Positions 1-9,872 of a DNA stretch of 63,434 bases are shown here, in pieces. The notes under the pieces were generated by a model that saw only the letters and a list, made by a program, of their open reading frames with translations, did no database searches and was not told the origin of the DNA. This DNA comes from an uncultured Candidatus Saccharibacteria bacterium (GTDB taxonomy: Bacteria > Patescibacteriota > Minisyncoccia > Minisyncoccales > JAGOPM01): positions 1 to 63,434 of the forward strand of contig CAZQSQ010000004.1 of NCBI GenBank assembly GCA_964596325.1, in the 5' to 3' direction. The number at the start of each line of letters is the position of its first letter. Positions within the stretch are counted from its first letter, which is position 1. The position numbers and the translations under genes were made by a program.

Positions 1-94
1 AGCGGAAATATTATCATCGGCGCCAAAAAAATTACCAACTTTTTCCAACTTGCCAACCCTTCACTTAAAGCTTCTGTTTTAACAACTGCCATAT

Positions 95-1696
95 TTACTT
101 GATTTTTATAACTTCTCTAATCAATTCAAACTTTTCGTTTGCATAAAAAATTGAGAATGACTCTCCTTTATTATCCATACCACCAACAAATAAAAGCCCT
201 TTATATTCTCCGCCAATTTGCTTATTATTTCGATAAAATTTAAAGGTCTTCATTTGACTTTCTTGATTATTGATCATTATTGGCTCCAACTTTGCAATTA
301 CCTTGTCGGTTACAGAATTATTTGTAATGATTCTCTCATTTTTTCCGGCAGCAGCAAATAATTTCCCGTTCTTATATATTGCCCTTGATTCCCATAGACT
401 AGAACCATCCATTGTAATAAGGTCTCCTCTATCTGTAAAATATCCCGAAGCGGTGCCGTTAGGCAATCTCTTCTCATTAAAATATGCTACCTCCTCTCCC
501 TTTCGCCTTAATGGTTGATTGCAAAAAATATTTTTACCATTAGGAGAAATATCGCATTGAAACGAATACAGCGCCTCTTTTTTTTCGTTAATTAGGGCTT
601 TTCCGTTTAATAGCACCCTCCCATCATCTATTTCTGCAATAGCATTGTTGTTGACAATTATATTAGAAAAATCATTAGCTCTCGGTATACTTTTCCCCTT
701 AAAATGTGTTATACAATTCTTGGTGCTTGCGTCGCATGACGTGTAATAAAAGGAGCCGTCATCAGAAAAGCCATATTCATCAAAAGCAGTATTATATTTT
801 GTATTTGGTAATTCTTTTCCATTTAATATTATTGCACCCAGCGATCTGTTATTATTTTTGTCTTTACCGTAAGATCGGTATGCGTAGTTCCTACCATCTG
901 GCGAAATAGCTATGTTAAGATGATGACCTTGAGAAAGTATCCTCTTCCCCACATACACGTCACCGCTATCGCTTGCGTATATTGGTCCCGCCCCTATTAT
1001 GAATCCGGTCAATTGCACTACATTGATACTTTTATATAATTTTTCTCTGTTGTAATACAGGGCGTAATTTGATCCCTCCTTTTTTAAGTAGGCATAACTA
1101 TTTAAATCTTTATCTGAAGTATAATCGGTTACATTATTAGTTACATTTATTTTGTTGCTTTCTATCCTTAGCAACATGTCGTTATCAGATGGGTAAAAAT
1201 ATGTATCTGCGGGAATATTATTCGAAAGAATGACCATCAATTTTTTCCCATCCCTACTAATTCTTAATTTACGAAATGACTTGAATAACGGTCCCTTTTG
1301 ACCATTAAACTCAAAATAGAAACTATCTTTGCTTTTTGTGTCTCGACATTTTTTTACATAATAATCGCCAACAGAACTATCAATAAGGCCCCGATCATCC
1401 TTCGTAATGATTTCGCAATTAAAATCACGGCCATTAATATAAGTCCACTTTTCATCGTAATAGCCTTCCTTTCCATGATAAGTCAAAATATATGGTATTA
1501 CTTCGCCACCCTTTCCCCCACTTAAACATAATGGTGGATCTGTCATAAAATTGTAAGCATTCTTATTCTTGAGGTTAAATAATAAATATTTTCCTGGCAT
1601 TAACCTTGTTGTTTCCTGACAAAACTTTTCCGCTTTCGAAATAAATGGGATAAAAAGTACCAATAATAACAATAAATATAATATTTTATTTTTCAT
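95..1696 (-). CDS. Secreted repeat protein, probable beta-propeller (PD40/TolB-like)
   Basis: Signal peptide (MKNKILYLLLLLVLFIPFISKA); repeated 'ISxDG' and 'lNGk' blade-like units; paralog of 1698-3269. Confidence 0.55.
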   Translation of the reverse strand: MKNKILYLLLLLVLFIPFISKAEKFCQETTRLMPGKYLLFNLKNKNAYNFMTDPPLCLSGGKGGEVIPYILTYHGKEGYYDEKWTYINGRDFNCEIITKDDRGLIDSSVGDYYVKKCRDTKSKDSFYFEFNGQKGPLFKSFRKLRISRDGKKLMVILSNNIPADTYFYPSDNDMLLRIESNKINVTNNVTDYTSDKDLNSYAYLKKEGSNYALYYNREKLYKSINVVQLTGFIIGAGPIYASDSGDVYVGKRILSQGHHLNIAISPDGRNYAYRSYGKDKNNNRSLGAIILNGKELPNTKYNTAFDEYGFSDDGSFYYTSCDASTKNCITHFKGKSIPRANDFSNIIVNNNAIAEIDDGRVLLNGKALINEKKEALYSFQCDISPNGKNIFCNQPLRRKGEEVAYFNEKRLPNGTASGYFTDRGDLITMDGSSLWESRAIYKNGKLFAAAGKNERIITNNSVTDKVIAKLEPIMINNQESQMKTFKFYRNNKQIGGEYKGLLFVGGMDNKGESFSIFYANEKFELIREVIKIK

Positions 1697-1697
1697 A

Positions 1698-3269
1698 TTA
1701 CTTGTTTATTTTAATAACATCCTTAAAAACTTTGCCTTTTTGCAAAAAGATAACTACTAAATATTTGCCATCGTCCGTCAAATTAGCCTCATTATTTTTT
1801 GGGTATATTTTACCAATCTGGGTTTTACCACTAAAGAATCTAGTTTCATCATTATTTACTGACTGCCGGCCAATTATGTACTTTGCATATGAGGAATTAG
1901 AATAAATTAATTCATTATCGTTGCTTGCGGTAACAATCAATTTACTATTTTTATATAGTCCTCTTGTACCATTTTTATTATCTGAAACAACAATGATCCC
2001 TCCATCGCTCGAAAATCCTGCCTGCCTTAAGCCTACCGGAAGTTTATTATTATTAATATATGCATTCTTGACGTCTTGAGAATAAAATGCGTCAGCAAAG
2101 TATACATTGCGGCCATCATCAGATAATTCAAAATAATATTTATTTGGCAATAGCTCAACATATATCTTACCCATTCTCGCTCCGTTGAGTATAATTTCAC
2201 TGTATTTTTCGTTTTGCACCGTCAAACCAGATACTAATAGTGCAAATCCTTTAGAATTTGCAATCACTTTTACAATGCCCTCATTACCAATTTCAACCTT
2301 TTTGCCATAACACTCAAAGTAACGCCGCCCATTCAATCGAGAAACATAACAAAATTTTCCGTTGTCGGAAAATATGAAAGGGTCAGTCTCACTATCTAAT
2401 GAACCGGTATTTTTAAGTTCTTTCCCGTCTAAAAAAATATTATTATTCCCAGGCTTTTTATCGCAATTCGGGTCCCGGTCATCTCGATACGCAATACTCT
2501 TCCAATTCGGAGAAAATACTATCACTCTGTCAAAGCAAGTATTATTATCTTGCAATGAATTGCCAATATAGAAGACATTTCCTTCGATTTTTGCCATCGT
2601 CCGATAAACCGGACCCCTGCCGGAAATAAAACCGGCAAACCCAGAAAACATTGGGAATGGTCCGTTTTTTACGCCCTTATAATTAACAAAATAATTCCCT
2701 TGCTCGAAATAAGCATAAGCGTAATCTAATAAATTAGTATCTGCCGCGAAATACCAAACGTTGCTTGCCAATACCATATTTTTATCACCTATCAAGATTA
2801 GACTGCCAAATGAATCACCATTAGTAATGATGGCCATCATCCTTTTACCGTCACCACTTATCTTAAGACCTTTGAACTCTTTGAACTCTTGGCTTCTGTG
2901 ACCATTAAAGTCAAAATAATATTTATCGCGAGAATTTTTGGCAGGACACATCTTGGCGTAATACTTTTTGTCGCGATCATACTCGTCAAAAATGGCCTTA
3001 CAGCCATCTTTTTTCCCATCAAAAAAATATCCTTCGCCATGCTCATCCTGGTTGTACCCATTCATCATGTAGGTTAACTCAAACAATCCGGAATTATTAG
3101 GTGAGAGGCACCATTCTCTCGGAATAACACTAATATTTTCACTATACTCCGCCAAGATATATCTACCTTCTCTGGGTAGCGACTTCAGTGGGCATGTTTC
3201 ATATCCATAAGCTAAAATTGGAAATAGTATCGAGAGAATGATAAATACAGATATTCTTTTTATTATCAT
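1698..3269 (-). CDS. Secreted repeat protein, probable beta-propeller (paralog of 95-1696)
   Basis: Signal peptide; YYAKMCPAKNSRDKYYFDFNGHRSQEFKEFKGLKISGDGKRMM aligns with YYVKKCRDTKSKDSFYFEFNGQKGPLFKSFRKLRISRDGKKLM of the neighbour; FSPNW/FSDNG/FSSDG repeats. Confidence 0.55.
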   Translation of the reverse strand: MIIKRISVFIILSILFPILAYGYETCPLKSLPREGRYILAEYSENISVIPREWCLSPNNSGLFELTYMMNGYNQDEHGEGYFFDGKKDGCKAIFDEYDRDKKYYAKMCPAKNSRDKYYFDFNGHRSQEFKEFKGLKISGDGKRMMAIITNGDSFGSLILIGDKNMVLASNVWYFAADTNLLDYAYAYFEQGNYFVNYKGVKNGPFPMFSGFAGFISGRGPVYRTMAKIEGNVFYIGNSLQDNNTCFDRVIVFSPNWKSIAYRDDRDPNCDKKPGNNNIFLDGKELKNTGSLDSETDPFIFSDNGKFCYVSRLNGRRYFECYGKKVEIGNEGIVKVIANSKGFALLVSGLTVQNEKYSEIILNGARMGKIYVELLPNKYYFELSDDGRNVYFADAFYSQDVKNAYINNNKLPVGLRQAGFSSDGGIIVVSDNKNGTRGLYKNSKLIVTASNDNELIYSNSSYAKYIIGRQSVNNDETRFFSGKTQIGKIYPKNNEANLTDDGKYLVVIFLQKGKVFKDVIKINK

Positions 3270-3274
3270 ATTAA

Positions 3275-4999
3275 CTATTTGATTTTCGTTTCCCTTTCTT
3301 TTTTAGCGTAATAGGTATGCAAAATCTTTTTGCGATTGGCTTCTTCTTTCAAATACCCATCATAGAGCATTTGCACATCTGGGTTTTTATGGGCCGAGCG
3401 CACCGGGCAGGTATTATCCGCCAATTTCAAAGCCTCGATCCGCGCTTTGCGGATTTTGGGGCTAACGGGCAGCGGGTTGCCTCCCCCGCCAATACAGCCG
3501 TCATGGCAGGCCATAAACTCCACGTAGTGATATAACCCGGGATTGTTTTTTATCTCCTCCAAAACCTGCACTGCGCTTTCCATGGTATTAACCGCACAGG
3601 CCCGCAGTTCAACCTTACCGGCTTTGGCCTTACAAACATAACAATTTTTAATTTTGGCGTGAGGCACGAACTTGAAATCTTTTAACTCCTTGCCGGCCAA
3701 AATCTCATAAGCGGTCCGGAAAGCTGATTCGGTCACACCTCCGGAGCGGCCATAAATTACACCCGCCCCCGACGGCCGACAAAGTTCAGAAAGCGCCTCA
3801 TCCGGGGCAATCTTGCGCAAATCAACATGATTTTTCTTAAAAACCCACGCCAATTCCCGGGTAGTCAGAACATAATCAACCGGCGCAATCCCATCAACGG
3901 CCAATTCGGGTCTTTTAATCTCATATTTTTTGGCCACACAAGGCATAACTGTAACCACGCTCACCGCCTTAGGGCTTAAACCATTTTTGGTCGCCCAATA
4001 ATTTTTCAAAAGCCCTCCCAACATTATTTGCGGACTGCGTGCACTGGTAAAATTTGGTATCCATTGTGGCGCGTAAAATTCCACCCACTTAACCCACGCC
4101 GGGCAGCAGGAGGAAAACATGGGCAAATTTTTATTTTCTTTGATGCGGCCCACCAGTTCATTAACCTCTTCGATCGTGGTCACATCCGCTCCCGAGCTTA
4201 CATCAAAAACATTTTTAATGCCCATCTTTTTTAAGCCAGAAATTATATGGCCGGTTACTAGGCTGCCATGGGGCAGATTAAAAAGTTCTCCGATAGTGGC
4301 CCTAATGGCTGGGGCAAAAGCCACCAAAACAACTTTGTCTTTTTCTTTCAAAAAATCTTCGCTGTTTTCAAATTCCCCTCCCCCTTCAATAGCGCCCACC
4401 GGGCAATGAACAATGCACTGGCCGCAATAAATGCAATCGCGTTTGCTGTCTTTAGTGGGGCAAACTTCAAAAAAATCTTCCCGCTTTTCGATATCATAAA
4501 AGCCGACCTGCTGGCGTTGGCACATTTCTACGCAATTATGGCAATCTATACACTTATCTTGGTCAAAATGGATACTGGGACCAAAATCATAAATCGTATT
4601 TTTTTTCTTGCGCAGCGGATATTTGTTTATCTTGGCCCCAAATTGCTTGGCATAATTCAATAAGACGCAACGGCCGCGCAAAATGCAATCATGGCATTCG
4701 ATTTTATGTTGGCCTAAAATCAATTCCAAATTTTGACGGCGCAAATGGTAAACTTGGGGTGTCTGGTAATGCACCACCATACCCTCTTTTGCCTCAACCG
4801 AGCAGGAAGTATGCACGCCTTTTTGCCCTTCAATTTCCACCAAACAAAGCCGGCAATTAGCCTTTACGCATAAATCATCGTGCTGGCAAAGCCCGGGAAT
4901 ATTAATGCCATTATCCCGCGCCACCTCAAAAATAGTCCGGCCGGGGGCGGTTTCGATTACTTTCTTGCCTATTGTGATTTTTATCTTGTCCTTACTCAT
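3275..4999 (-). CDS. hydA: [FeFe]-hydrogenase catalytic subunit (group A, HydA type)
   Basis: N-terminal 2Fe-2S (IPGLC..CRLC..TSC), His-ligated cluster (HKIECHDC..C), two 4Fe-4S (CIDCHNCVEMC, CIYCGQCIVHCP); H-cluster motifs FSSCCPAW, MPCVAKKYE, EFMACHDGCIGGGG. Confidence 0.93.
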   Translation of the reverse strand: MSKDKIKITIGKKVIETAPGRTIFEVARDNGINIPGLCQHDDLCVKANCRLCLVEIEGQKGVHTSCSVEAKEGMVVHYQTPQVYHLRRQNLELILGQHKIECHDCILRGRCVLLNYAKQFGAKINKYPLRKKKNTIYDFGPSIHFDQDKCIDCHNCVEMCQRQQVGFYDIEKREDFFEVCPTKDSKRDCIYCGQCIVHCPVGAIEGGGEFENSEDFLKEKDKVVLVAFAPAIRATIGELFNLPHGSLVTGHIISGLKKMGIKNVFDVSSGADVTTIEEVNELVGRIKENKNLPMFSSCCPAWVKWVEFYAPQWIPNFTSARSPQIMLGGLLKNYWATKNGLSPKAVSVVTVMPCVAKKYEIKRPELAVDGIAPVDYVLTTRELAWVFKKNHVDLRKIAPDEALSELCRPSGAGVIYGRSGGVTESAFRTAYEILAGKELKDFKFVPHAKIKNCYVCKAKAGKVELRACAVNTMESAVQVLEEIKNNPGLYHYVEFMACHDGCIGGGGNPLPVSPKIRKARIEALKLADNTCPVRSAHKNPDVQMLYDGYLKEEANRKKILHTYYAKKERETKIK

Positions 5000-7145
5000 T
5001 TATTTGTTGTTCATTCTTAGGGGCTGGCCAAATTTTGCCTAGTTCGGCGGCTGCACTTTGAATATTCCGTAAATTAATCCCATCACTGAGCTTTTCTTTA
5101 GCTACTTCCCAAACTGCCCGCCCTTTTTGTAAATTTTCCCCCAATGCATTACCCTTTAAGGCCTCTATTTTTGCCAAAAATGCGCGATATTGAGCATTTT
5201 TAGACTTGTCTTTAGATACGCTTATAGCCAAATCAATCCCAATTTTAGCCTTATCGGCGTCGCCTTCTTTTAAGAAAAAATCAGCGACTTTTTTATAAAT
5301 GTCTTCAGAAAAAATTGTTCCCGCATGTAAAACATCATCATAATATTTTTTCGCAGATGCAATATCTCCACTTTTCTCTGATGCATTGGCTGCAAGCAAT
5401 ACAGCTCTGTAATTGTCAGGGTCAGCTTCTAAAGATTTTTCCAAAATCTCTTTTGCCCTTACTGTTTGCCCAAAACTATCAGCCACTTGGGCAAAAATGG
5501 AATTGGCCTGCGGATCTTTTCCAAACTTAATTAAAGCACTATCAAGCATCTCTCTGGCCTTATCCGGACTCTCGTAGTCATTCGTGCCCACTATCAAGCG
5601 TGCGGCAAGAACAGGGTCGCTCGGGTCTGCATCCGAAGCCCTTTTTCTCAGGGCAAGAGCTCTTGTGGTATCTATGCTTAAATATTCAACAGCCACATTA
5701 TTTGCCACGGCCGCGAGCAAACTATTCTCCGCCGGAGCTACATGAAGGAATTCCTGCCCATATCGAAAACTAACACCTTGTTTGGATTTACCCGAAGCAA
5801 TATTGATAATATCCTGCAATTCTACTTTACTGCCATCGGGTTTTGTTCCAAATATTCGTCCACCACTAAGCTGAGAAGGAAGAGAAGTATCTGTATTTTC
5901 AACCAACCAAACTCGCCCCTCTTTGGTAGATATAATGGAAAGAACATGACCCGGAATATGCACGAGAGCATTATCAATTCCGGCCTCTTTCATTATTTGG
6001 CCAAAAAGTGCAGTTTTACCAAGACAATTTTGCGCCCTTAACTCACTAATTTTTTGCGGGGTATCGCTTTGGGGCTCAAAATCTAAAGTCCCGATTAATT
6101 TTTTGATATTACTCGCAAAGTCCAATTCGTCTGCGCCGGCGATATCTTCGGGAAAAGAGGACCTTTTCAAATCTTGTTTGATACGCTCGCGGAAATTTTT
6201 TACATCCACCAACTCCTCTATAGGGGCTCGGCGTTCAAAATAATATTCAAGCACATTAGCGGTTTCTGAATTATTCCCGCCAATTCCGGCCAATTCCTTT
6301 TTAAGCAACCCCTTATAGCCACCCTCTTGAATGGCTATTTCTAAATCCTGATAAGCGCGTTCCACTTCCCTGCCCAAATTACCCTGCGCCTTGGCATAAA
6401 AACGCTGCGCAACGGAGGGCGCTTCTTTCGAGTTAATTCTTTCTGAATTTTGGCGGCCGCCTTTTTCGGCCAAATGGAAATACTGTGCTAAAGTTTCCAA
6501 ACGCTTCACCTCCAAAGCCTCCTCTTGTAACTCTTTGGGCAGAACCTCAATGGCTGCTGTACGCTTTTTATAGAGATCCTCTCCGGCTAGCCATTTATCA
6601 AGATGCTTAGTTTCCTGGTCGCTTAAGGGTATCTCGGCAATAATCTTAAGCCACTCGTTATTATCTTCGGCAGAAAGCGGCCGAACCATTTCCTCCCCCA
6701 GAGCCTTCTGTCCGTATTCAAAAAACTCTTCCGCCGTCTTTTCGGCCATGCCGCGGCCATTGCCGATATTTTCCGCGCGCTTAGCGATATAAACTCCAGC
6801 ATTGCGGAAATTCTCGCCATATTCACGAACTTGTTCCTGCCACTGCTCCTGCATTTCGGGATCGCCTTCATAAACATCTAAAGCGACCTTCCCGGTAATT
6901 TTGGGCATTTCGTAAAACTTCATGTCGCGGGGCACATGCAAAACTTTTCTCTCACCCTCCAGTGAAATTGGCTGTTCCTTATATTCTTTTTCCCATTGGG
7001 CCCGCTCCAAAACATCCAGCTCCACATAGCTGTTTATCCTGCACCAATCCTCCATCAAATAGCGGGAAAATGGCTGGGATAATAATTCCCTTTCAGCCAC
7101 CTTCTCCATTCCCAAACCGATTTTTTGTTCAGGTTTTTGTTCCAT
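4992..7145 (-). CDS. Protein with a central transglutaminase/papain-like Cys-His motif and C-terminal TPR repeats
   Basis: NCLGKTALF..GHVLSII..WLVENT; TPR-like helices (A..ILEKSLEADPDNYRA, AKKYYDDVL); charged N-terminus. Confidence 0.55.
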   Translation of the reverse strand: MEQKPEQKIGLGMEKVAERELLSQPFSRYLMEDWCRINSYVELDVLERAQWEKEYKEQPISLEGERKVLHVPRDMKFYEMPKITGKVALDVYEGDPEMQEQWQEQVREYGENFRNAGVYIAKRAENIGNGRGMAEKTAEEFFEYGQKALGEEMVRPLSAEDNNEWLKIIAEIPLSDQETKHLDKWLAGEDLYKKRTAAIEVLPKELQEEALEVKRLETLAQYFHLAEKGGRQNSERINSKEAPSVAQRFYAKAQGNLGREVERAYQDLEIAIQEGGYKGLLKKELAGIGGNNSETANVLEYYFERRAPIEELVDVKNFRERIKQDLKRSSFPEDIAGADELDFASNIKKLIGTLDFEPQSDTPQKISELRAQNCLGKTALFGQIMKEAGIDNALVHIPGHVLSIISTKEGRVWLVENTDTSLPSQLSGGRIFGTKPDGSKVELQDIINIASGKSKQGVSFRYGQEFLHVAPAENSLLAAVANNVAVEYLSIDTTRALALRKRASDADPSDPVLAARLIVGTNDYESPDKAREMLDSALIKFGKDPQANSIFAQVADSFGQTVRAKEILEKSLEADPDNYRAVLLAANASEKSGDIASAKKYYDDVLHAGTIFSEDIYKKVADFFLKEGDADKAKIGIDLAISVSKDKSKNAQYRAFLAKIEALKGNALGENLQKGRAVWEVAKEKLSDGINLRNIQSAAAELGKIWPAPKNEQQINE

Positions 7146-8132
7146 TTACTTTTTCATCACCTTGCGCAATAGCCCACGGAAAGGCAAAGGCATGCCCCTG
7201 CCCAAAGGGCAGAAACTAGCTTTCTCCAAAGTGTCCAACATTTTATAAAATTCCGGATAATCAATTTTATTGCTCAAAACCATTTCCAAAATCCGGTGCG
7301 CACCCTCGCGGCAAGGCGTGCATTTATCGCAATTCTCATTGGTAAAAAACTGCGCCCATTCCTGCATCAAAAATATCGGGTCGGTCTTTTTCTTGCTGAA
7401 AACCACTATAGCCCCGGCACCTTCCACCAATTTATTGACCAATTCCTCTTTAAGATAAATTGCCCCGCTGGCCCCGCCGCCGCACTGGATAAAAAAGTCT
7501 TCATCCAACCAATTACCCGTCTGGCTTAAAATCTGTTTAATGGGCATATTCAGTTCCACTTCATAAACGCCAGGATTGGGAATATCTCCGGAAATGGTGG
7601 CAAAGCGCGTATTTTTATATTCGCCTTTGGCAATTTTGGAAACGCAATAAAATGTCTCGATATTATTTATCAAGGTTGGCTGCCCAAAAAGACCGCAAGT
7701 GGTCGGATAAGGCGGTTTAAGCCTTGGTTCTTGGAACTTGCCTTCAATAGTATTGAGCATGGCCGTCTCCTCTCCCCCGATGTAGTAACCTTCTTTGCGG
7801 AATTGCTTGATAGGCAAATTGCCAATATAGCGGTGCAGGTGTTGGGAATAGGAATGGAAGTAATCGTGGTTCAAATAAATATAAGCTTCGCTCTTGCCTA
7901 AAAATTCCAAAGCGATTTTAAGGCCGTTTATCAAATCTTCCGGATGGTTCTCGATGATGAATTTATCTTTGGCTACTTTAGGCTCGCCTTCACTGCCATT
8001 AGCGACAATATATTTATAATCAGCCTTGGCTTCTTTAACCATCTGCCATTTTTGCCAAACAGGAAAACCCGCCCCTCCCCGGCCGCGCAAATCCGCTTTC
8101 TTTAGTTTTTCAATAATTGAGCCTCCAAACAT
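7146..8132 (-). CDS. NuoF/HydB-like NADH-binding flavoprotein (minimal: FMN + SLBB + one 4Fe-4S)
   Basis: LRGRGGAGFP, NGSEGEP, YIGGEETAM, GLFGQPTLINNIET, ENCDKCTPCREG..FCPLG. Confidence 0.9.
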   Translation of the reverse strand: MFGGSIIEKLKKADLRGRGGAGFPVWQKWQMVKEAKADYKYIVANGSEGEPKVAKDKFIIENHPEDLINGLKIALEFLGKSEAYIYLNHDYFHSYSQHLHRYIGNLPIKQFRKEGYYIGGEETAMLNTIEGKFQEPRLKPPYPTTCGLFGQPTLINNIETFYCVSKIAKGEYKNTRFATISGDIPNPGVYEVELNMPIKQILSQTGNWLDEDFFIQCGGGASGAIYLKEELVNKLVEGAGAIVVFSKKKTDPIFLMQEWAQFFTNENCDKCTPCREGAHRILEMVLSNKIDYPEFYKMLDTLEKASFCPLGRGMPLPFRGLLRKVMKK

Positions 8133-8168
8133 ACAAAATAAAATGCCTGATATCTAATTATTTTCGCT

Positions 8169-8864
8169 TCATTCGCCTTCACTGATTGATTGCTCTGCCT
8201 CTTCCAGCTGCTTCTTTTTTTCTTTTTCCTCTTTTTCCTTTTTCTTCTGGAGATCACCCTCCCTGTCTTCTACCTGCTTGCCTTGCGCAATTTCTTTAGC
8301 CACAGTTTCGAACAGTTTGGCTCGCGACATTACTTGGCCTTTATAGAGCGGCGCCGTGGCATCAGCCCATTCCAAATGCCGGCTTAAAATCGGATTAATT
8401 TTACTCCTCAAATCATTATTGGTTGTCCGGCTGCCGTAATAACTGGCCACCCCCTCTTTAATCGACGAGGCGAGGTCTACCTGCCCTTCTGGGCCGCGCA
8501 CCAAGCTTGAACCGATATTGCGTGAAATTTCCCGGATAAGCTCATCATTGGGCACGAAGCTCTTGGCTTCTTCGGGTGAAGTTTTTTTGGCCTCGGCAAA
8601 AAATTCCAACATAAATTTGCGCACAGCTTTGGCCGCCTCTTTTTTGACAATGGGTGTGCCAAGCATCTCATTTCCCGGCTCTTTGGCTAGCGAATCTAAA
8701 TGGTCGGAAAAGGCCCTTTTATTCATGGACTTCATTTCAATGTAGGAAAAATCCAATTTCTCGGGCTTCTCTATTATAGCCCCATCCTCCTCAATCGCCC
8801 GGGCCGCTGGTTCCTTTTTATTAGCATTAGGTTCCATAGTTTTTCTGATTAAATTCCAAAACAC
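8169..8864 (-). CDS. Hypothetical charged protein
   Basis: 231-aa ORF co-oriented with and 36 nt upstream of the NuoF-like gene; the start may be the internal MEPNANK. Confidence 0.6.
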   Translation of the reverse strand: MFWNLIRKTMEPNANKKEPAARAIEEDGAIIEKPEKLDFSYIEMKSMNKRAFSDHLDSLAKEPGNEMLGTPIVKKEAAKAVRKFMLEFFAEAKKTSPEEAKSFVPNDELIREISRNIGSSLVRGPEGQVDLASSIKEGVASYYGSRTTNNDLRSKINPILSRHLEWADATAPLYKGQVMSRAKLFETVAKEIAQGKQVEDREGDLQKKKEKEEKEKKKQLEEAEQSISEGE

Positions 8865-8965
8865 GCAAACCTTTTGCGCTTTCCTCTAAATTATACAAAA
8901 ATTGCCCGGGCTCTGCTAATTTTTTTTCAACAGTCAACAGGCAAAAAGTTAAAAATAATATCTCA

Positions 8966-8994
8966 TTGACAAATTTATAAAAAAATATTATAAT
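8966..8994 (+). promoter_or_regulatory. Consensus sigma70 promoter
   Basis: TTGACA-N17-TATAAT followed by AAGGAGG and a TTG start at 9027. Confidence 0.8.
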
Positions 8995-9026: not shown

Positions 9027-9872
9027 TTGATACAAGAGATAGTCGAAAAAACACTTTTAGCCGCCCAAACCAGCTTGGCAAGATTAGGGCCGAGCGGGCT
9101 AACACCCAAAGAAAAAAATCGATTCGGCGAAACATGTTTGCAGGCTGATTGGGAGTGCGAAGAAGCCGTTATCAATTGTTTGAGGCGGGAAAATTTTGCC
9201 GCCAGAATCATCAGCGAAGAACACGGCACCATTGATCTTACGCCTAATCCTTTTTATACCTGCATACTCGATGGGCTGGATGGTACGCGCCAATACCAGG
9301 CTAATCGCAAAAAAGGGATTTATGGCACCATCTTGGGCATTTTCCACGGCCTTGACCCTCACTACAATGATTACGCGGCCGGCGGAGCAATAATCCATAG
9401 CCAAAATACCCTTATTACGTATGTAAAAAACGAAGGTGTGGACGTCTGCCGTCAAATGCTTACCAAAAACCACTACAATACTCCCCCGCTTATAGTCGAT
9501 TCCCTCAGCGAGCTGGTCAGCCGACAGAGGCCAATTTTTGTCGATGAGCCATGGGAAGCCAACCAAATCGCTTTTGCCAGACCCCTCAAAAAAAGAGGAT
9601 ATACGATTAATGATCTAGGGAGCTCTACTGCTTCTTACGCAGCCATTGCCTTGGGCGAGGCTGACCTGGTGCTGGAATGCACGCGCAAAGATAATCTCGA
9701 AATCGCGGCATTCTACGGCCTTATTACCGAGCTTCAAGGCCTGATGGTTACTCTAGATGGCCAACCGCTCGGAGAACAGAAATACAAAAAGTTCGGGCAA
9801 AAAGACCACATTCCGATTATCACCTGTACCAATAAAAGCCTTTTATATGAGCTCCTTTGGGCAATCACTTAA
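9027..9872 (+). CDS. Inositol monophosphatase/FBPase-like family phosphatase
   Basis: IISEEHG, ILDGLDGT (DPxDGT variant), EIAA..VTLDG. Confidence 0.8.
   Translation: MIQEIVEKTLLAAQTSLARLGPSGLTPKEKNRFGETCLQADWECEEAVINCLRRENFAARIISEEHGTIDLTPNPFYTCILDGLDGTRQYQANRKKGIYGTILGIFHGLDPHYNDYAAGGAIIHSQNTLITYVKNEGVDVCRQMLTKNHYNTPPLIVDSLSELVSRQRPIFVDEPWEANQIAFARPLKKRGYTINDLGSSTASYAAIALGEADLVLECTRKDNLEIAAFYGLITELQGLMVTLDGQPLGEQKYKKFGQKDHIPIITCTNKSLLYELLWAIT

Follow-up and report, generated by a model that had tools for sequence, protein, structure and literature searches.

The 63,434-nucleotide stretch of contig CAZQSQ010000004.1 analysed here (the window) comes from a member of Candidatus Paceibacterota, within the Candidate Phyla Radiation (CPR)/Patescibacteria, that has a reduced genome, and its minus strand encodes a predicted two-subunit [FeFe]-hydrogenase. 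The genes for the catalytic subunit HydA (P0001; 574 aa, 3275..4999) and for a short NuoF-like flavoprotein (P0003, here NuoF'; 328 aa, 7146..8132) are separated by a gene for a 717-aa protein (4992..7145), which we refer to as MID, the middle gene. The explanation that we favour, and consider fairly probable as a whole, is that NuoF' and HydA form the core of an NADH-type hydrogenase, that a membrane protein is encoded by the third gene of this module, and that MID is a passenger that was inserted once between the subunit genes. The closest public record is a Candidatus Paceibacterota metagenome-assembled genome of a different strain, whose proteins are 98-99% identical to those of the window. 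DNA nearly identical to the window was found in biofilm, activated-sludge, landfill, wastewater and digester metagenomes.

The catalytic subunit HydA

HydA has the M3 layout, with matches in Pfam to Fer2_4, NADH-G_4Fe-4S_3, two Fer4 domains, Fe_hyd_lg_C (PF02906, 249 bits against a cut-off of 22.1) and Fe_hyd_SSU. The protein thus comprises the Fer2_4 domain, a His-ligated [4Fe-4S] cluster, two ferredoxin-type [4Fe-4S] clusters, the H-domain and a small-subunit-like tail, with four accessory clusters in total. Both the translation and an alignment with 8a6t_A show the ligands of the [2Fe-2S] cluster (C38/C49/C52/C66), those of the His-ligated cluster (H98/C102/C105/C111) and two CxxCxxCxxxC motifs. 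The H-cluster ligands occur in SSCCPAW (C298/C299), MPCVAKK (C354) and MACHDGCIGGGG (C498/C502), and the proton-path Cys is intact. A preliminary description of this DNA had stated that HydA keeps all H-cluster cysteines, and each of these ligands was found in place.

The group A motif test (L1 TSCCPxW, L2 MPCxxK, L3 ExMxCxxGCxxGGG) is positive for HydA. The closest solved match is HydA1 of the Thermoanaerobacter kivui bifurcating complex (8a6t_A, E=1e-121), and CpI is matched with E=1e-104. The scores lie below the curated NCBIfam cut-offs (386.3 against 405.95 for TIGR02512, FeFe_hydrog_A, and 573.6 against 765 for NF040763, group A6), which points to a divergent group A enzyme. We predict that HydA is the catalytic subunit of such an [FeFe]-hydrogenase. 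The ratio of nonsynonymous to synonymous divergence (dN/dS), measured for hydA and nuoF' against relatives at a dS of about 1, is 0.02-0.04 for hydA, a sign of very strong purifying selection. Short metatranscriptome contigs map to the gene at 3360-3510, 3669-3818 and 3919-4069, at depths of 2-4 at which DNA carry-over is possible.

A short NuoF-like flavoprotein without NuoE

The domains identified in NuoF' are Complex1_51K (PF01512, 117 bits), a weak SLBB and NADH_4Fe-4S (PF10589, 48 bits). The protein aligns to residues 184-546 only of Thermotoga maritima HydB, with several loop deletions, and neither Pfam nor this alignment identified the N-terminal [2Fe-2S] domain or the C-terminal 2x[4Fe-4S] ferredoxin domain of HydB; the lack of extra ferredoxin domains had already been remarked upon in the preliminary description. 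The alignment to the NuoF profile begins at profile position 36, the NuoE-docking N-terminus is missing, and NuoF' is about 100 residues shorter than NuoF. The closest solved matches are 7p5h_B and 9bov_B (E about 1e-45), and complex I NuoF scores as well as HydB.

Motifs for flavin mononucleotide (FMN) and NADH are present, as is one N3-type [4Fe-4S] site. In an alignment of 20 family sequences, the invariant columns include G17, R18, G20 and P24 of GRGGAGFP, N45, S47, E48, G49, E50, Y117, G120, E122 and T123 of GGEET, and the N3 cysteines C268/C271/C274/C308. The first Glu of GGEET, which is reported to set the preference for NADH over NADPH in Escherichia coli NuoF, is retained in NuoF'. 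The dN/dS of nuoF' is 0.01-0.03, so that this gene too is very strongly constrained.

Residues that distinguish the flavoproteins of bifurcating hydrogenases, in T. maritima HydB numbering, are A or E at 232, M at 234 and GGPSG at 427-431; the non-bifurcating pattern is T or S at 232, K, S or A at 234, a Tyr at the flavin site, and no GGPSG (Losey et al., 2020, PMC7311640). We read the Tyr/Phe site at the GxY/F-x-C/G-GEET motif, the residue number in PMC7311640 being unlike the PDB numbering. NuoF' has K55 at the position of residue 234, a Tyr in GxYxGGEET, and GGASG in the place of GGPSG, and these three agree with the non-bifurcating pattern; V53, at the position of residue 232, agrees with neither. 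None of the three HydB bifurcation signatures occurs in NuoF', which has V53, K55 and GGASG at these sites.

No gene for NuoE was identified. The NuoE-type motif (C-x4-C...C-x3-C) was found neither in the window, where we applied a motif-level screen to open reading frames (ORFs) of at least 80 aa and also read the ORFs, nor among the 1166 genes that flank 80 nuoF' loci (the best 80 of 534 matching stretches among GTDB species genomes). NuoE is also missing from the Pfam lists of five related contigs (L001, L002, L007, L008 and L009). The radical-SAM motif CX3CX2C was not found in any ORF of the window and occurs once in the 1166 flanking genes, in a secreted Cys-rich protein, and no HydEFG was recognized on reading the ORFs of the window. 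This agrees with the preliminary description, in which no NuoE/HydC or HydEFG maturase had been seen in the window.

The best reading of NuoF' and HydA is a non-bifurcating, NAD(H)-linked function, because the extra Fe-S domains are lacking and K234, the Tyr and GGASG follow the pattern of Losey et al. (2020). The domains and the content of the window thus bear out the earlier proposal of a two-subunit enzyme of HydA and a short NuoF, without NuoE, in a reduced genome, and its qualification as probably non-bifurcating fits the same residues and domain losses.

The most similar described systems are the non-bifurcating enzymes of Syntrophomonas wolfei and Syntrophus aciditrophicus (PMC7311640). 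These combine an M3-type HydA with a NuoF-type FMN/[4Fe-4S] flavoprotein that lacks extra clusters, and have K at 234, Tyr at the flavin site and no GGPSG; the reaction predicted for the present pair is likewise NADH + H+ <-> NAD+ + H2. A NuoE-like [2Fe-2S] module is part of both characterised enzymes: it stands apart in S. wolfei and makes up residues 15-152 of HydB in S. aciditrophicus (PMC7311640). No such module was identified in the window or in the 80 flanks. The predicted enzyme described here further differs in having Val at 232, a NuoF' that is about 100 residues shorter, and a membrane-protein gene that resembles transporter S components. The bifurcating HydABC enzymes of T. maritima (7p5h), T. 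kivui (8a6t) and Acetobacterium woodii (7q4v) share the accessory-cluster layout of HydA, but the pair described here lacks HydC, the N-terminal [2Fe-2S] and C-terminal 2x[4Fe-4S] of HydB, GGPSG, A/E232 and M234.

Predicted electron transfer

In complex I, electrons pass from FMN via N3 (NuoF) to N1b, N4 and N5 (NuoG), and the N1a cluster of NuoE lies off this path. Since the N-terminus of HydA is NuoG-like, NuoF' and HydA could together constitute a complete wire from NADH to the H-cluster. We predict that NADH reduces FMN in NuoF', and that electrons would then move through the single N3-type [4Fe-4S] cluster and enter HydA by its NuoG-like N-terminal chain of [2Fe-2S] and [4Fe-4S] clusters, to be used at the H-cluster for making H2. 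Lacking NuoE/HydC and the extra clusters of HydB, the pair should act as a simple reversible NADH:H+ oxidoreductase. The benefit of such an enzyme would be confined to conditions of low H2 pressure, such as the vicinity of H2 consumers in sludge and digesters.

A module found across the Patescibacteria, with a membrane protein

The gene pair noted in the preliminary description is not peculiar to this genome. A search with NuoF' matched 534 stretches among GTDB species genomes, and we found 7972 relatives of NuoF', thousands of them of the same length. hydA is in view in 73 of the best 80 nuoF' loci; in 69 of these the two genes abut, the median gap being -4 nt, and 51 overlaps were counted. 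The pairing of a short NuoF with HydA is a phylum-wide design of the Patescibacteria, widespread and uncharacterised. A literature search found no description of a NuoE-less NuoF/HydA enzyme in CPR bacteria, and nothing specific on CPR [FeFe] hydrogenases, on their maturases or on a hydrogenase of Ca. Microsyncoccus.

The two-gene module proposed earlier is incomplete, as a regular third gene was overlooked. A gene for a membrane protein lies directly after hydA in 57 of the 73 loci (and before nuoF' in 5). In the window it starts at position 92 on the minus strand, and its first 30 codons (1..92), recognized from the translation and from homologues, run off the left edge; the translation MAVVKTEALSEGLASWKKLVIFLAPMIIFP continues in contig L010. 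The protein is polytopic, with a length of about 170 aa. The Pfam family PF12822, of S components of energy-coupling factor (ECF) transporters, is matched by 38 of 55 family members at E at or below 0.05 (best 4e-7, near full length). The copy of the species itself had no PF12822 match, a search with the family profile against PDB sequences returned no match and hence no solved S component, and no EcfA/EcfT genes were seen beside the membrane-protein gene. The likeness to S components such as RibU, ThiT and BioY consists of the similarly small size and polytopic form, together with weak profile matches. This ECF-S-like protein probably imports a vitamin-like cofactor or a precursor, the flavin for NuoF' being the simplest guess as its substrate.

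Several relatives differ in this region. In L010 (3548-3890) codon 85 of the membrane-protein gene is an in-frame stop (LP*IIVSN instead of the LPYIIVSN of relatives), owing to an error of sequencing or assembly or because the gene is a pseudogene in that strain. In three species representatives (L031, L067 and L079) no hydA occurs in the 4 kb or more of sequence available downstream of the short nuoF'; NuoF' may serve other partners too. The same triad of nuoF', hydA and membrane-protein gene is present in Candidatus Microsyncoccus archaeolyticus PMX.50 (L015, 7998-11195), which we take to be a CPR bacterium studied together with methanogenic archaea. This organism could serve as an experimental handle for the module.

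The MID protein family

MID had been labelled a transglutaminase-TPR or Cys-His protein. The tetratricopeptide repeat (TPR) part of this label is significant (TPR_19, PF14559, 44.2 bits against a cut-off of 25) and the Cys and His are conserved; the transglutaminase part stands at the level of fold only, with matches below significance. When the non-TPR N-terminal 500 residues were used as a profile, 289 representative clusters were recovered at E<1e-3, and 124 of them also at E<1e-30. Most members of this family have 600-750 aa and align end to end. We aligned 20 and 55 of these sequences. In the larger alignment a candidate catalytic triad is nearly universal (C374 in 54/55, H400 in 54/55, and an acid at 416 in 55/55, D in 48 and E in 7); MID itself has Cys374-His400-Glu416, with the spacing C-x25-H-x15-D/E. 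In the smaller alignment the Cys and His are invariant. The family alignments also show N373 to be invariant or nearly so, and contain several N-terminal motifs (e.g., LAGxxLY).

The full-length model of MID had a mean predicted local distance difference test (pLDDT) of 64, and a Foldseek search with it returned TPR proteins only, so that a second model, of residues 1-510, was needed. This AlphaFold2 (AF2) model, built from the 55-sequence alignment (pLDDT 86.5, predicted template modelling score 0.86), is confident; C374 begins a helix, and H400 and E416 are borne by the beta-strands after it. Its Foldseek matches in the PDB are nearly all proteins of the transglutaminase fold (PNGase, LapG, TglA, PeiP, CPR-C4 protease, Rad4/XPC and menin), with E of at least 0.14 and a best probability of 0.98 over 60 columns. 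The domain profile also touches the nucleophile motif of PeiW (E=0.64), where the INC motif is aligned, and PF01841 was matched by one relative only (P0009, E=0.075). The same order of Cys, His and Asp/Glu, on a helix and then beta-strands, occurs in PNGase, LapG (BTLCP), PeiW/PeiP and the CPR-C4 protease (7ob6), and the combination of a transglutaminase-like domain with a subsequent helical/TPR region resembles menin. Every one of these matches is below significance, and no match was found for the helical N-terminal region of about 350 residues.

The C-terminus is formed by helical repeats in the AF2 model (pLDDT 80-90; Foldseek match to consensus TPR proteins, E=9e-6). These TPRs are far more degenerate in MID than in free-standing members of the family. 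The 25 top Pfam families among 55 members are all TPR families, which is uninformative on the catalytic domain, and a profile search with the family alignment returned generic TPR proteins and no further true members. MID has no N-terminal hydrophobic segment and is thus probably cytoplasmic. It is likely a cysteine peptidase or a protein-modifying enzyme, with TPRs that would serve to hold the substrate.

Two other identities were considered and rejected. MID is not a NuoE replacement by homology, as both a Cys cluster motif and a thioredoxin-like domain are lacking, and it is not a mobile element, as it has no transposase or nuclease features and its family sits among housekeeping genes.

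MID as a probable passenger in the hydrogenase operon

The nuoF' stop codon is followed without gap by the start codon of MID (...AAGTAAATGGAA, TAA then ATG, 7146/7145), and MID overlaps hydA by the 8 nt ATGAGTAA at 4992-4999 (...AATAAATGAGTAAGG). The ORF coordinates, the strand and this coupling had been given in the same way in the preliminary description, which left open whether MID is a dedicated partner or a tolerated insertion.

The insertion fits better. In a survey of 79 loci with family members on metagenome contigs, 78 have neither nuoF' nor hydA beside the MID gene, the contig of the species itself being the one exception; flanking sequence of at least 900 nt is available on one side in 70 of the 78, and on both sides in 34. 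No neighbour family is common to more than 5 of the 79 loci, and the sampled neighbours include DnaG, FtsW/RodA, TsaE, a methyltransferase, an ATP-grasp protein, PP2C and a transposase fragment. Conversely, MID is missing from 79 of the 80 species-level nuoF' loci (72 of the 73 with hydA in view) and was found only in that of its own species. These counts disfavour the dedicated partner. The synteny survey that had been suggested for the middle gene has a divided outcome: MID is absent from nearly all species-level loci, yet it is kept and coupled throughout one clade.

Within that clade the position is stable. MID relatives of 81%, 71% and 59% identity are all located between nuoF' and hydA, as is a relative of 27% identity in L007, where NuoF' and HydA are 62% and 59% identical to those of the window. 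The tight coupling is kept in L001, L002 and L007. The five operon-embedded copies form one clade in the family tree, with 100/99 support and a long stem branch. The dN/dS of MID (0.09-0.11) indicates constraint that is 3-10 times looser than that of its neighbours. MID appears to be functional, because the triad is conserved, dN/dS is low and the coupling is kept.

Three unrelated inserts were observed at the same junction in other lineages: a 124-aa protein in L033 (6874-7248) that on sequence reading resembles a four-helix bundle of the rRNA-intervening-sequence type, a 97-aa GIY-YIG-like nuclease, again on sequence reading, in L061 (5868-6161), and in L032 (7210-10899) a 3.7-kb block with opposite-strand genes. 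The junction between nuoF' and hydA thus tolerates insertions.

We propose that a free-standing MID-family gene entered the junction of nuoF' and hydA a single time, in the common ancestor of five lineages that form a small clade. Purifying selection would have maintained it there since, with translational coupling in the hydrogenase operon providing for its expression. MID would most likely be a tolerated passenger that uses the expression of the operon, rather than a hydrogenase subunit, because the family is free-standing, MID is absent from the loci of other species, and the junction holds other unrelated genes.

Alternative explanations

Several observations weigh against the explanation that we favour. 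V53 of NuoF', at the position of HydB residue 232, differs both from the A or E of bifurcating enzymes and from the T or S of non-bifurcating ones, and the top solved matches of both subunits are bifurcating enzymes. The electron path is drawn by homology to complex I and HydABC. The embedded copies are grouped in the family tree by a join of long branches, which may be false as a result of long-branch attraction. The fold of MID, reasonable as an assignment at fold level, is based on weak Foldseek matches and on sub-threshold Pfam and PDB profile matches. Coupling at both ends, retention across lineages in which MID is down to 27% identity, and the long stem branch would also fit a recruited accessory role.

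Such a role is the alternative that we take most seriously, while considering it unlikely. MID would be a clade-specific accessory of the hydrogenase whose TPRs bind NuoF' or HydA and whose Cys-His domain processes, tethers or regulates them, for example as an assembly scaffold, a maturation-related peptidase or a stand-in for the structural role of NuoE. The gene lies exactly between the subunit genes and is coupled to each by a zero gap or an overlap, an arrangement conserved in three relatives. It is retained in every member of the clade seen and is under purifying selection, and its function may have changed once it was captured, to judge by the long stem branch and by TPRs that are degenerate. 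However, 72 of 73 species-level nuoF'-hydA loci do without MID, the family is elsewhere unlinked to hydrogenases, selfish or unrelated genes occupy the same junction in other lineages, and the NuoF' and HydA of the clade show no obvious loss that would need compensation (ligands kept, dN/dS 0.01-0.04).

Clearly less probable is an enzyme that is still ferredoxin-dependent, or that bifurcates by a non-canonical route, with a NuoE/HydC-like partner or a ferredoxin encoded elsewhere. The best PDB matches of HydABC type (8a6t_A, 1e-121; 7p5h_B and 9bov_B, about 1e-45) and the GGASG motif, one residue off the bifurcating GGPSG, are consistent with this. NuoF' nevertheless lacks the C-terminal 2x[4Fe-4S], the N-terminal [2Fe-2S] and the N-terminal segment, carries K234 and the flavin-site Tyr of the non-bifurcating enzymes, and matches complex I NuoF as well as it matches HydB, and none of the 80 flanks contains a gene with a NuoE motif.

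Least probable of the three is that HydA cannot be matured for want of HydEFG and serves in Fe-S electron transfer or as a sensor, or is on the way to loss: the motif screen found no maturase in the window or the 80 flanks and the in-frame stop in the adjacent membrane-protein gene of one near-identical strain contig hints at decay, but the H-cluster ligands and proton-path Cys are all intact, the dN/dS of hydA is as low as that of core enzymes, the module is kept in hundreds of tiny genomes, RNA contigs map to hydA, and [FeFe] hydrogenases from maturase-less genomes of archaea and some protists are reported to be active (PMC11216029).

Gene order and strain variation

The genes form one co-directional, tightly packed string on the minus strand, in the order 231-aa protein, NuoF', MID, HydA, two cassette genes and the ECF-S-like membrane protein. 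A promoter-like site at 8890..8919 (minus strand; TTAGCA-18-TATAAT, 10/12 matches in a consensus scan, and a consensus match only) is the probable start of the transcription unit, and an RNA contig of metatranscriptome run X25 covers 8809-8989, over this site. Back to back with it, at 8966-8994 on the plus strand, is a perfect TTGACA-17-TATAAT promoter that serves an inositol-monophosphatase-like gene at 9027. On reading, the other ORFs of the window were only housekeeping, type IV pilus or secretion-like, and unknown genes.

The string opens with the gene for P0004 (8169..8864, minus strand), a 231-aa protein of unknown function with a Lys/Glu-rich tail, for which no Pfam or NCBIfam match was identified. 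Its homologues are confined to the closest relatives, being present upstream of nuoF' in L001, L002 and L012 and not in L007, and its dN/dS is 0.07-0.08. Synonymous divergence from L012 across 3275-8864 is mosaic (0.64 for the 231-aa gene, 0.40 for nuoF', 0.019 for MID and 0.096 for hydA), a pattern suggesting that strains have recently recombined inside the operon.

Between hydA and the membrane-protein gene we identified a strain-variable cassette of 3180 bp (92..3271), whose two minus-strand genes (1698-3269, 523 aa, and 95-1696, 533 aa) encode paralogous, secreted and probably beta-rich proteins. The GC content of the cassette is 0.345, against 0.44-0.46 in the hydrogenase genes. It is present in L002, L010 and L011, and absent from L001 and from the species-representative genome (L012/L092). 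DNA run X1 contains both forms (depth 15.2 with and 5.6 without the cassette), run X3 has the cassette-less form, and the deletion joint 91->3272 was seen in both runs. The sequence AAAATCAA(A/G)TA..ATG is common to the two junctions, and the C-terminal ...KI(N)K of the paralogs resembles that of HydA (...KIK). A search with the 533-aa protein returned only strain contigs of 3-4 kb.

Implications

The survey defines a previously unannotated protein family, with a conserved N-terminal region, a Cys-His-Asp domain and TPRs, in 289 representative clusters. A natural experiment is offered by close relatives of which some have a gene between those for the two subunits and others do not. As a caution, tight translational coupling on both sides is by itself no proof of functional partnership in these compact genomes. 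A bolder possibility, which we regard as improbable, is that NuoF', HydA and the S-component-like importer make up a self-contained minimal cassette without NuoE, in which H-cluster assembly would do without HydE/F/G, perhaps starting from a precursor that is imported, and to which MID would have been added in one clade as an assembly or regulatory factor.

If NuoF' and HydA are active as encoded, they would represent the smallest natural design for an NADH:H+ oxidoreductase, in which a NuoF-type flavoprotein is stable and wired to an Fe-S chain without NuoE. CPR bacteria with this enzyme would be able to vent fermentative NADH as H2 in one step beside H2-consuming hosts or neighbours.

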